The notes under the pieces were generated by a model, which was given only the letters and a program-made list of their open reading frames with translations, searched no databases and had not been told where the DNA came from. 41,918 bases of DNA from a virus: the IMG/VR virus record IMGVR_UViG_3300045988_009872; one strand, written 5' to 3'. Positions 20,576 to 22,379 of the stretch are shown in pieces. Position numbers and translations under genes: made by a program. Every line of letters starts with the position of its first letter. The stretch's first letter is position 1.

Positions 20576-20646
20576 ATTTTGATCCCTTTTACCAGTTCTC
20601 TAAGCGGTTCAAGAAAATCGTCAATGATGTATTCCCCGTCTTTCAA
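20572..20646 (-). CDS. possible 24-aa coupling ORF
   Basis: A TTG start overlaps the MuF stop, and its stop forms an ATGA overlap with the next gene. Translation: MKDGEYIIDDFLEPLRELVKGIKI. Very short, so uncertain. Confidence 0.3.
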   Translation of the reverse strand: MKDGEYIIDDFLEPLRELVKGIKI

Positions 20647-22379
20647 TTTTTCTTACTCCTCTCAAAGATTTTTACAAGTTCTTGGTCGAGAATATCTTCT
20701 TCTCCGTTCCAATACGCCGCAAAACTCTCTGCCACATATTCTTGTTTGTTGCTGGTCGCATAAGCTGAAATTTTGCCGGAATACTTTTCAAAACTGGACG
20801 ATAAATCAAATCCAATTTCTTTCTCTGCCTTTTTGAAAACACGGTCATCAAGATAATGGCCTAACTCATGGACCATAGAGCCGTAAGCATCCGGCTCATT
20901 CACGTTTGTTCTTCCGGTCGCCTTAAGTGCTTGTACATATCGCAACTGTAATTCTGCTCCAAAACCTGTTTTTTGCTTTGCCTTTTCAATGGCGATGTCA
21001 ATATTAGGCATTACTGTTTCCAGCAAATCACGATATTCTTTTACATGAGCCGCCATTGCTTTTTGACTTTTCAAATAGTCTTTGTTGAAAAATAGGTCGC
21101 ACGTCCCCCACTGATATGCGGCTTCTGCGGTTGTGTCCTTGAAGCGTTTTTCTCTCCTATTGAACGGAACAAGATTTCTGATTTTATAATCAACGTCATA
21201 CTGGTCAAGGACTTCGGTTAATGCCCTGTTCATCTCATTAGCATATTGCAAGTCGATTCCCTTATAGTCAATTTTTCCAGTATATTTGCTCTTGTAATCG
21301 TTAACGTATTTTTCGGCGTATTTTTGCGCTTCTTCAATAGATGCAGCGGGGGTAAAAGACGGCTTTGCTGCTTTTTTAAGTTGCCTCTTCTTCCACCCTG
21401 CCCACTCGGAATAGGTCATGTCCGAAATAACCTCATTCCGCCCAGTACCGGCGTTTTTGGCGCGTCTCTGCGCCGATGAGGTATCTACGCCCTCCACGGC
21501 GGCAATCAGCGTACAGCGGCAGTTATATATCTCCCACGGTGGCCCTTGCGGGTCTCCGGGAAAACGACAACCGTTAGAAAACTTCTTGTCCTGCGCCACT
21601 TGTTCGCCGTCAAGCATGGCATGAGAGTGACGTGTACGCGCGTCCAGCGTGGCCAACCATTCTTTTTTGAGCTTGATGCCCATCTTCTCCGCCGCCGCAT
21701 AGCTGTCCATGCGACCGGCGTTCTGCGCGCCGGTCACGGCGGTTCTGGCGGTGCGGATAGCGCTGCCCCGGCTCATGGTGGTGATCCGCTTTTGCAGGTC
21801 ATCCGCCATGTTCTTGATGCTCTTCCCCTGCAAGATGGAGCTGGTGACGCTTGCCGTAATTTGCTTCTTGCCATACGCGAGATCAATGCCGCGCTTTAAG
21901 GCGCGTTTCGGCGGGTAATATGGCATCAGCTCCGGCTGCTCTACCATGAGCCGCTTGACCGTCTGCTCGTCCCACAGGTCAAAGCCGACGTTTCCCGCGA
22001 CCTGCTCGATGGTGTACGCCGAATAGTTGCGGTTAAGGGAATAGATACCCGGCGTTGCATCGTTGGTGTAGGATACCGCCACGGCGTTTGCTTCAGTCGC
22101 GCGGTGCGCCACTTTGTCACGCATGGCCTGATAGCGTTCCCCGCGCCCGATCTGGTTCAGCCGCCATTGCTTATAGTCGGCCTCCGCCCATTCCTTACCG
22201 TTCTGCACGGTGCCAATCAAGGCTTTCATTTCCTCGTCGCGCTTTTGGAACTGCTCAAAGTATGCGTCAATGGTCGCTTGCAATTCCTTCCCGGCCTCAC
22301 GGTATAGTTTCTCAATGCGCCGTTCCAGCTTTGCAAGCTCCTTGTCGGTCAGCTTGTGGCCGAGGTCACTGTTCGCCAT
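20643..22379 (-). CDS. head morphogenesis protein (SPP1 gp7 / Mu F-like) fused to a C-terminal HEXXH zincin-like domain
   Basis: The N-terminal ~300 aa carry RTRHSHAMLDG...NCRCTL (MuF). The C-terminal ~270 aa are encoded by visibly AT-rich DNA (about 20643-21420). They contain HELGH (20856-20870) followed by EYVAESFAAYW. Confidence 0.85.
   Translation of the reverse strand: MANSDLGHKLTDKELAKLERRIEKLYREAGKELQATIDAYFEQFQKRDEEMKALIGTVQNGKEWAEADYKQWRLNQIGRGERYQAMRDKVAHRATEANAVAVSYTNDATPGIYSLNRNYSAYTIEQVAGNVGFDLWDEQTVKRLMVEQPELMPYYPPKRALKRGIDLAYGKKQITASVTSSILQGKSIKNMADDLQKRITTMSRGSAIRTARTAVTGAQNAGRMDSYAAAEKMGIKLKKEWLATLDARTRHSHAMLDGEQVAQDKKFSNGCRFPGDPQGPPWEIYNCRCTLIAAVEGVDTSSAQRRAKNAGTGRNEVISDMTYSEWAGWKKRQLKKAAKPSFTPAASIEEAQKYAEKYVNDYKSKYTGKIDYKGIDLQYANEMNRALTEVLDQYDVDYKIRNLVPFNRREKRFKDTTAEAAYQWGTCDLFFNKDYLKSQKAMAAHVKEYRDLLETVMPNIDIAIEKAKQKTGFGAELQLRYVQALKATGRTNVNEPDAYGSMVHELGHYLDDRVFKKAEKEIGFDLSSSFEKYSGKISAYATSNKQEYVAESFAAYWNGEEDILDQELVKIFERSKKN

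Follow-up and report, generated by a model that had tools for sequence, protein, structure and literature searches.

Polymorphic toxins carried on phage head proteins of the MuF family were described by Zhang et al. (2012, PMC3482391) and Jamet et al. (2017, PMC5576092). In these proteins, an N-terminal MuF domain is encoded right after the portal gene, the C-terminal effector is variable, and an open reading frame (ORF) of small size lies immediately downstream. Metallopeptidases make up 20% of MuF toxins, and an ORF of <150 aa follows 89% of them (PMC5576092). The toxins are restricted to temperate phages, and their proteases were proposed to modulate the infected cell rather than to kill it (PMC5576092). 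The only MuF cargo studied experimentally so far is the (p)ppApp synthetase: MuF Apk2 toxins have validated downstream immunity proteins (IapK/Aph1), and IapK occludes the active site (PMC12226406). In addition, the MuF protein gp44 of phage 80alpha is an ejection protein (cited in PMC12323379). Here, we analyzed the virus record IMGVR_UViG_3300045988_009872 (41,918 nt, the window, to whose whole length all coordinates refer), which encodes a MuF protein fused to a C-terminal zincin-like module and, directly behind it, a micro-ORF of 24 codons.

The fusion ORF (20643-22379, minus strand) encodes 578 aa, comprising the MuF half and the zincin module. We found all the architectural features of MuF toxins that we examined, namely the MuF domain, the position after the portal gene, the polymorphic C-terminus, the small downstream ORF and a temperate phage, here of a gut Firmicute lineage. 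The partner encoded in the window is, however, much shorter than typical immunity proteins. Taken together, the locus is probably a MuF polymorphic-toxin cassette, in which a head-anchored, ejectable zincin effector is combined with a co-translated micropeptide that silences the protease in the producing cell. MuF-metallopeptidase fusions are already published as a class; what is new here is the conserved micropeptide partner and the extent of cargo swapping. In the searched literature, which does not cover the kinds of metallopeptidase behind the figure of PMC5576092, we did not find a description of this zincin family with its partner of 22-37 aa. Nor did we find there a description of the extent of one-site cargo swapping in the gut phage lineage of the window.

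Three described systems are close to this one. MuF-Apk2 likewise has a MuF carrier with its immunity gene(s) directly downstream, and the occlusion of the active site by IapK is the mechanism that we propose for the micropeptide. It differs in its enzymatic cargo and its full-size immunity proteins, and Apk2 was validated experimentally whereas the window system is known from sequence. The zincin metallopeptidases of polyvalent proteins (Iyer et al. 2017, PMC5512222) are also delivered with invading DNA, a widespread phage clade of them has an Asp three residues after HEXXH, and some relatives of our module occur in multi-effector proteins; the window protein, in contrast, has two domains only (MuF and one module). 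The closest cultured MuF protein, with 60% identity, belongs to Flavonifractor phage Chenonceau (ON453904), which has the same order of MuF, cassette, gp10-like gene and 44-aa ORF, but carries a non-zincin cargo of ~100 aa with a coupled 69-aa ORF.

Exchange of the C-terminal cargo at a fixed junction

The MuF half of the fusion (aa 1-320, 21420-22379, minus strand) is conserved backbone. The preliminary description of this DNA had recognized it as a MuF protein, and the Phage_Mu_F domain (PF04233) was indeed detected at aa 173-292 (21504-21863, minus strand) with an E-value of 3.6e-18. At E<1e-20, searches with the N-terminal 320 aa recovered 5598 homologues; identity among the top 120 is 92-98%, and their lengths range from 338 to 558 aa. 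To these N-halves many different C-termini are joined, or none. Swapping of the C-terminus, as had been suggested, is therefore what the relatives display, rather than a uniform C-terminus conserved in all MuF homologues.

Two scans supplied 104 loci for comparison: the module search contributed 24, and the other 80 share the MuF N-half at >=90% identity. Among them we identified at least 14 C-terminal states (13 cargo types or no cargo). The relatives diverge fully beyond the shared junction MTY[AS]EWAGWKK. In the window this motif reads MTYSEWAGWKK (aa 321-331, 21387-21419, minus strand) and, as the last stretch common to relatives with different cargo, marks the left border of the cassette. 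The other C-termini include four more HEXXH zincins (HEIGHAY, HEFAHT, HELGHAVDD and HEFGHNIDW), an ADP-ribosyltransferase (PF03496), a module with an HNHPNG motif that is JAB-like by motif reading only, unknown domains, and a short MuF of 338 aa without any extension. The sister cassette of HELGHAVDD type (P0040) passes the Pfam ATLF threshold with 29.0 bits. In loci with other or no cargo, the portal, MuF N-half, gp10-like and scaffold proteins are ~80-95% identical to those of the window.

Base composition follows the same border. The GC content is 0.58 in the MuF N-half, 0.40 in 20576-21386 and 0.56 in the next gene, and the low-GC cassette belongs to the lowest 0.8% among 811-nt windows of the whole sequence. 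All 13 cassette types (13/13) are AT-rich, with GC 0.40-0.47 compared to 0.55-0.58 in the backbone. The AT-rich character of the C-terminal DNA had been noticed before; the break, however, is not at 21480 but at about 21386-21419, just past the junction motif, and the AT-rich block runs beyond the MuF stop to 20576. Since it ends at the ATG of the gp10-like gene (20575) and not at the MuF stop, the block contains the micro-ORF. The variable cassette (20576-21386, minus strand) thus consists of linker, zincin module and micro-ORF, and alternative cassettes occupy the same site in related loci.

The spacing between the MuF stop and the gp10-like gene is characteristic of each C-terminal state. 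It is -4 nt (a direct ATGA overlap) for the short MuF and the HEFAH zincin, ~59-67 nt in most window-type loci, and 76-636 nt in the remaining states. In 11/13 cargo types the spacer carries a conserved, type-specific ORF of 24-102 aa, and 6 of these 11 ORFs overlap the MuF stop by 4 nt. Pfam recognized no significant family in the partner ORFs that belong to sister cassettes. At the level of sequence, these comparisons demonstrate that the C-terminus is swapped as a cassette at a fixed junction, probably by recombination.

Several of the compared loci deserve a remark of their own. The HEFAHT...NEFLAECF zincin (L058, L137, L138; P0032/P0060 type, 548-550 aa) is among the commonest cargo types in the homologue list. 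The FTHNHPNGS module of L062 (P0041, 518 aa) is JAB/RadC-like by motif and has no Pfam match, and it is followed by a 24-aa ORF of its own, VEKTIFDDQKRIDEAKKAAKEMKL. At positions 1296-4999 of L003, ~3.7 kb with six genes, one of them DUF6273 as in the tail region of the window (8259-9764), lie between portal and MuF, which normally overlap; this interruption is either an insertion or a chimeric assembly. A near-identical copy (L136; GCA_024181985.1, BRDB01010165.1, 3001-4663) has a ~65-nt internal deletion and a frameshift. As a result, the MuF ORF is only 366 aa long and the remainder of the module is in a separate ORF of 196 aa, while the micro-ORF is intact. Either decay or an assembly error may account for this split.

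Conservation and coding status of the micro-ORF

The micro-ORF of the window (20572-20646, minus strand) has 24 codons and encodes MKDGEYIIDDFLEPLRELVKGIKI, a micropeptide that is a candidate for the cognate inhibitor or immunity factor. It is read in the -1 frame from a TTG start that shares bases with the MuF stop (TTGA), and at its other end the stop codon overlaps the ATG of the gp10-like gene. The preliminary description had seen no obvious immunity gene and named this ORF as the only candidate. The ORF exists at that position, and the doubt attached to it can be settled: a homologous micro-ORF follows the module in 55/56 loci, over module identities of 32-99%. The lone exception is L004, which is almost identical to L003 but has lost 1 nt in a T-run.

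The micro-ORF accompanies the module in different surroundings. It occurs behind three carriers (MuF, VG15 and Phage_min_cap2), and at least five different genes come after it, including the gp10-like gene, two glycosyltransferases, a nucleotidyltransferase and a DUF4355 scaffold. Its start overlaps the module stop or lies within a few bases of it (ATGA, TTGA, GTGA or TAATG; 8 nt upstream in some loci). We also found a Shine-Dalgarno (SD)-like purine tract 4-14 nt upstream of the micro-ORF in 27/30 unique loci, placed in the codons of the conserved C-terminal F-E-[RKEG].

Coding signatures were examined in 33 unique 51-nt segments of the micro-ORF, with the two other frames as controls. No segment (0/33) contains an in-frame stop in the micro-ORF frame, compared to 30/33 and 29/33 in the control frames. 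The synonymous share of differing codons is 29% in the micro-ORF frame versus 8% and 5% in the controls, and the codon positions 1/2/3 show a nucleotide diversity of 0.46/0.35/0.65. The peptides are 22-37 aa long with a net charge of -2 to -12. They share an acidic N-terminus, the core phi-I-I-[D/Y/F]-D-[F/P/I/Y/W]-[L/F/Y]-x-[P/E]-L-x-x-phi-[A/V] and an acidic tail. Asp(+3) never varies, and 31/33 sequences have Leu(+8), though this position was left out of the anchoring. Because of the co-occurrence, the coding-type substitution pattern and the SD-like signal, we conclude from comparative evidence that the 24-codon ORF is a real gene travelling with the module.

Two compound loci are informative about the partner. 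In L054, where the module is joined to DUF6883, a 53-aa ORF comes first and the micropeptide follows it. In L053, where the module has an extra domain of ~100 aa, the downstream small protein ends in ...EGIIVDDFLSGLAEM, with the motif fused at its C-terminus. This behaviour is that expected of immunity modules when toxins are compounded.

Beside this, we observed in L053 (downstream gene at 2249-2503) and L052 that the extra ~100-aa domain of the module (EYAHVMSE...YTVENNGFG.YR) is matched by a small-domain gene downstream, which in L053 ends with the I-I-V-D-D-F-L motif and so forms a composite partner protein.

A similar arrangement occurs in the Streptococcus pneumoniae prophages IPP23/25/26. 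IPP26 (KY065467, L139) encodes a MuF protein to which a distant M34-like module (HEVIH ... YATENAAEFVAEAY) is fused, followed by a 63-aa ORF (3081-3272) ending in KFVFDDDIE, which resembles the core of the micropeptide. We roughly estimate, post hoc, that about one in a thousand proteins of this length would carry such a motif by chance. The IPP26 module differs from ours in being only 24% identical and in having a longer partner.

We also considered other accounts of the short frame. A programmed -1 frameshift joining the module to the micro-ORF was ruled out, as there is no conserved slippery site and the micro-ORF has its own start codon, placed at the overlap, in every locus. The possibility that the micropeptide mimics a substrate among the phage proteins was rejected, its motif being absent from the other real ORFs of the window. 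In a third homologue search, in-frame fusions of module and peptide were sought, and only P0150, a doubly frameshifted 109-aa fragment, was found.

The zincin module and its nearest relatives

The module proper spans aa 342-578 (237 aa; 20646-21356, minus strand), as delimited by the structure model and an alignment of 26 sequences. The sequence HELGH (aa 504-508, 20856-20870, minus strand) supplies two zinc-ligand His and the catalytic Glu, and EYVAESF lies at 20721-20741 (minus strand). Both motifs had been reported ~40 aa apart, and translation bears this out with a gap of 39 residues. A homologue search returned 30 module homologues with 42-92% identity, and the motifs HExGHxLDD, SxY and EYxAESF are invariant in the alignment, with the further invariant columns S230, Y232, E239, Y240, A242, E243, S244 and F245. 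Such invariance is what an active zincin under purifying selection would look like.

We then compared the module with known metallopeptidases. Pfam matched ATLF (PF07737) at aa 498-561 with 24.1 bits against a gathering score of 27.4, covering only profile positions 110-174 of 193. The AlphaFold2 (AF2) model of the 270-aa C-terminal segment has a mean predicted local distance difference test (pLDDT) score of 91.2 and a predicted template modelling score of 0.86. It is confident from residue ~31, the preceding low-confidence stretch being a linker (aa ~309-338) before the module. In the predicted fold, this disordered linker leads into a sheet of three strands; a long helical hairpin comes next, followed by the HEXXH and Glu helices. 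Foldseek against the PDB placed PPEP-3 (9g0j) and lethal factor (4wf6) at the top, with an E-value of 0.22 and template modelling (TM) scores of 0.36-0.45. Lethal factor came up again, together with PPEP-1, in a profile search of PDB sequences (E 0.18-1.1). The catalytic residues line up in this search: HELGH corresponds to HEFGH of lethal factor, and SAYAT..QEYVAESF to TSYGR..AEFFAEAF. Tyr540 (20760-20762, minus strand) and Glu547, seven residues further on, are both invariant and align with TSYGRTNEAEFFAEAF of lethal factor and with PPEP-1. The lethal factor residues opposite them are the catalytic Tyr and the third zinc ligand, so that Tyr540 and Glu547 would have these roles in the module.

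The likeness to M34 enzymes (lethal factor, PPEP-1/-3) lies in the HExxHxxDD helix, the Tyr seven residues before the Glu ligand and the common E-[YF]-x-A-E-[SA]-F helix, and these enzymes are the nearest structural and profile neighbours. The module differs in a long helical hairpin (model residues ~131-180) inserted ahead of the HEXXH helix, in falling under the Pfam gathering score and reaching only low TM scores, and in its setting, as it sits in a phage head protein whereas M34 members are secreted toxins or adhesin-processing enzymes. The Pfam, Foldseek and PDB profile searches all rank M34 first yet all stay below threshold. We therefore regard the module as M34-like, a zincin with a distant resemblance to lethal factor and the Pro-Pro endopeptidases, and stop short of assigning it to M34. 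This likeness is the best available assignment from profile and model comparison. Of the ATLF-like arrangement proposed in the preliminary description, the zincin motifs are confirmed, and the likeness to ATLF domains stays at a sub-threshold level.

The family extends well beyond the loci compared above. An exhaustive profile search yielded 549 cluster representatives at E<=1e-3, of which 91 remain when the cutoff is E<=1e-30. A recognisable N-terminal domain was found in 13/20 sampled members, and in all of these (13/13) it belongs to the MuF superfamily (Phage_Mu_F, Phage_min_cap2, VG15). Some members carry extra cargo, namely an ADP-ribosyltransferase, DUF6883, a PBECR2 nuclease or a C5 DNA methylase. 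The neighbours of the module in BFVD are phage entries named 'minor capsid protein', 'Lethal factor' and 'Metalloprotease'. PHROGs places the fusion protein in minor head and head morphogenesis families, and phrog_324 and phrog_4728 align to ~aa 560. A tblastn search of 50,697 GenBank phage records with the module gave zero matches even at E<=1, and the full-length query, used as a control, did match; among GTDB species representatives, the single module match is in a metagenome-assembled genome of a rumen Clostridiales. P0003, a candidate for a stand-alone module gene, was dismissed as a frameshift split, since a truncated MuF ORF precedes it. As a separate observation, an intein-splicing domain is inserted in the MuF domain of P0198 and P0220, two MuF-zincin fusions of 855-884 aa.

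Proposed role of the cassette and alternative explanations

We infer that the micropeptide is the cognate inhibitor of the module, and we propose the following scheme. The conserved MuF half would anchor the fusion in the phage head beside the portal. Recombination at MTYxEWAGWKK would have installed the AT-rich two-gene cassette of an M34-like zinc endopeptidase and a coupled 24-aa acidic micropeptide. Late in infection, fusion and micropeptide would be made together by means of the stop/start overlap and the SD-like element in the last protease codons, and the micropeptide would bind and silence the protease in the producing cell. Its I-I-D-D-F strand and the following amphipathic helix could plug the active site, like the aspartate-switch propeptides of other zincins such as astacin and fragilysin. 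By analogy with described MuF proteins, a few copies of the fusion may enter the capsid along with the DNA and reach the next host by ejection, where the non-covalent inhibitor would be lost on passage or diluted out and the protease would cleave its presumed host target(s).

A bolder version of this scheme is tentative, and we hold it to be possible rather than probable. In it, the 22-37 aa 'I-I-x-D' micropeptides would form a new class of ultra-small cognate immunity factor, a trans-acting, propeptide-like plug for the active site of an M34-like zincin. Translational coupling would yield them in stoichiometric amounts, and the threading of the MuF-anchored protease through the tail would strip them off, so that the enzyme becomes armed only in the newly infected cell. 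If so, the FDD-type motifs at the C-termini of the longer partners in IPP26 and L053 would be the same plug, used as a reusable immunity element.

Several observations weigh against a toxin cassette with its own micropeptide inhibitor. The partner of 24 aa is far smaller than the immunity proteins described, and the micro-ORF of the window starts with TTG. In the same lineage, the cassette with the HEFAH zincin lacks a spacer ORF, which means that zincin cargo is not automatically in need of a partner. The class of the peptide co-varies with the HE[x]GH and ESF..WW motifs of the module, but shared descent could explain this. The tail of P0024, LIFDDGLDEIW, resembles the peptide motif but is predicted to be disordered (AF2 pLDDT 30-40), so that its model is uninformative on binding. 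Finally, every M34 test is below significance, as noted above for Pfam, Foldseek and the PDB profile search.

Other roles can be considered for the zincin itself. It may be a self-processing (releasing) peptidase that cuts the fusion or a polyvalent protein before packaging, in the head or after ejection, with the micropeptide timing the cleavage. Iyer et al. discussed this role for the zincins of polyvalent proteins, and the Asp three residues after HEXXH in their widespread phage clade (PMC5512222) recurs in HELGHYLD of the window; the family members with extra cargo listed above also fit a releasing function. In the window and most relatives, however, the zincin is the sole cargo and there is nothing else to release, and where sister cassettes carry non-protease cargo (ADP-ribosyltransferase, unknown domains), a releasing protease is missing, which leaves self-processing as an unlikely alternative. 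A role as head-maturation (prohead) protease is suggested by some annotations of MuF-zincin fusions, such as the label 'head maturation protease' of phrog_595 and the BFVD match to a 'capsid maturation protease' of Mycobacterium phage Indlulamithi. But the window has an SPP1-type head module that includes a scaffold protein, and the ~80-95% identical head proteins occur with non-protease cargo or none, including the 338-aa short MuF. Near-identical head proteins without the zincin rule out an essential role in head maturation, and we give this explanation hardly any weight.

The function of the pair can also be read differently. As a strict interbacterial toxin and immunity pair, particles released from lysogens would poison non-lysogenic competitors, and the micropeptide expressed from the prophage would protect kin. 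This corresponds to model b of Jamet et al. (PMC5576092), and the layout of the locus resembles that of a toxin with its immunity gene. The micro-ORF, however, belongs to the late structural operon, where it is coupled to the MuF stop, and we saw no sign that it is expressed independently in lysogens. By the expectation of Jamet et al. (PMC5576092), proteases are modulators of low toxicity, and a few protease molecules per particle would hardly amount to a killing dose. On balance, we regard killing of competitors as improbable, somewhat more so than self-processing. The last explanation denies the peptide any function and takes the micro-ORF as a translational bridge, by which the next gene would stay coupled to MuF once the cassette had been inserted, or as a chance ORF in AT-rich DNA. 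Its overlap with both the MuF stop and the gp10-like start would suit a bridge, as would the direct coupling of MuF and gp10-like genes in short-MuF relatives. Yet the amino-acid sequence is kept with synonymous drift across the 33 unique DNA versions, the micro-ORF does not reach the next gene in L006 (AT-rich sequence and a hairpin-like stretch, then a T-run) or in L054, and the motif is fused to the C-terminus of another protein in L053. We consider a functionless frame very improbable. An ejected zincin with a co-made micropeptide inhibitor is the explanation that we favour over all of these.

The cassette offers a compact and directly testable system for the role of MuF toxins during infection, with a confidently modelled zincin of ~237 aa and a putative inhibitor short enough for chemical synthesis. 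The phage lineage that carries it is very common in the human gut and related to Flavonifractor phages, with the cargo states described above at one site. If the micropeptide is the inhibitor, it would set a lower size limit for immunity factors and provide a natural peptide inhibitor scaffold for M34-type proteases. Sub-30-codon ORFs beside toxin domains should in that case not be dropped by gene callers.

Genome context of the cassette

On the minus strand, the gene order is TerL, SPP1-type portal, MuF fusion, micro-ORF, gp10-like gene, 44-aa ORF, scaffold and major capsid. TerL lies at 23757-25031. The portal gene (22366-23721, minus strand; Pfam SPP1_portal E 5.8e-35) has a stop that overlaps the MuF start by 14 nt. 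The HK97-gp10-like / tail-completion (Neck1) gene (20171-20575, minus strand; Pfam PF04883 E 5.7e-8, phrog_5 E 1.7e-20) belongs to the backbone and forms the right border of the cassette. The window also encodes replication genes and an M15 endolysin, and its temperate nature agrees with the integrase (40705-41718), ERF and SSB. Judged from this gene content, the whole window looks like a complete temperate phage.

Two minor observations concern the surroundings of the cassette. The gp10-like neck gene and the 44-aa ORF (20044-20178, minus strand) sit between MuF and scaffold, an unusual place for a neck gene; the 44-aa ORF is 86-99% identical in relatives where aligned, and Flavonifractor phage Chenonceau has an equally long ORF behind its gp10-like gene. 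A second AT-rich island (1281-1946, minus strand) has a GC content of ~0.39, the lowest in the window, and encodes an HNH endonuclease-like protein (phrog_374, E 1e-63). This island looks like another mobile insertion.

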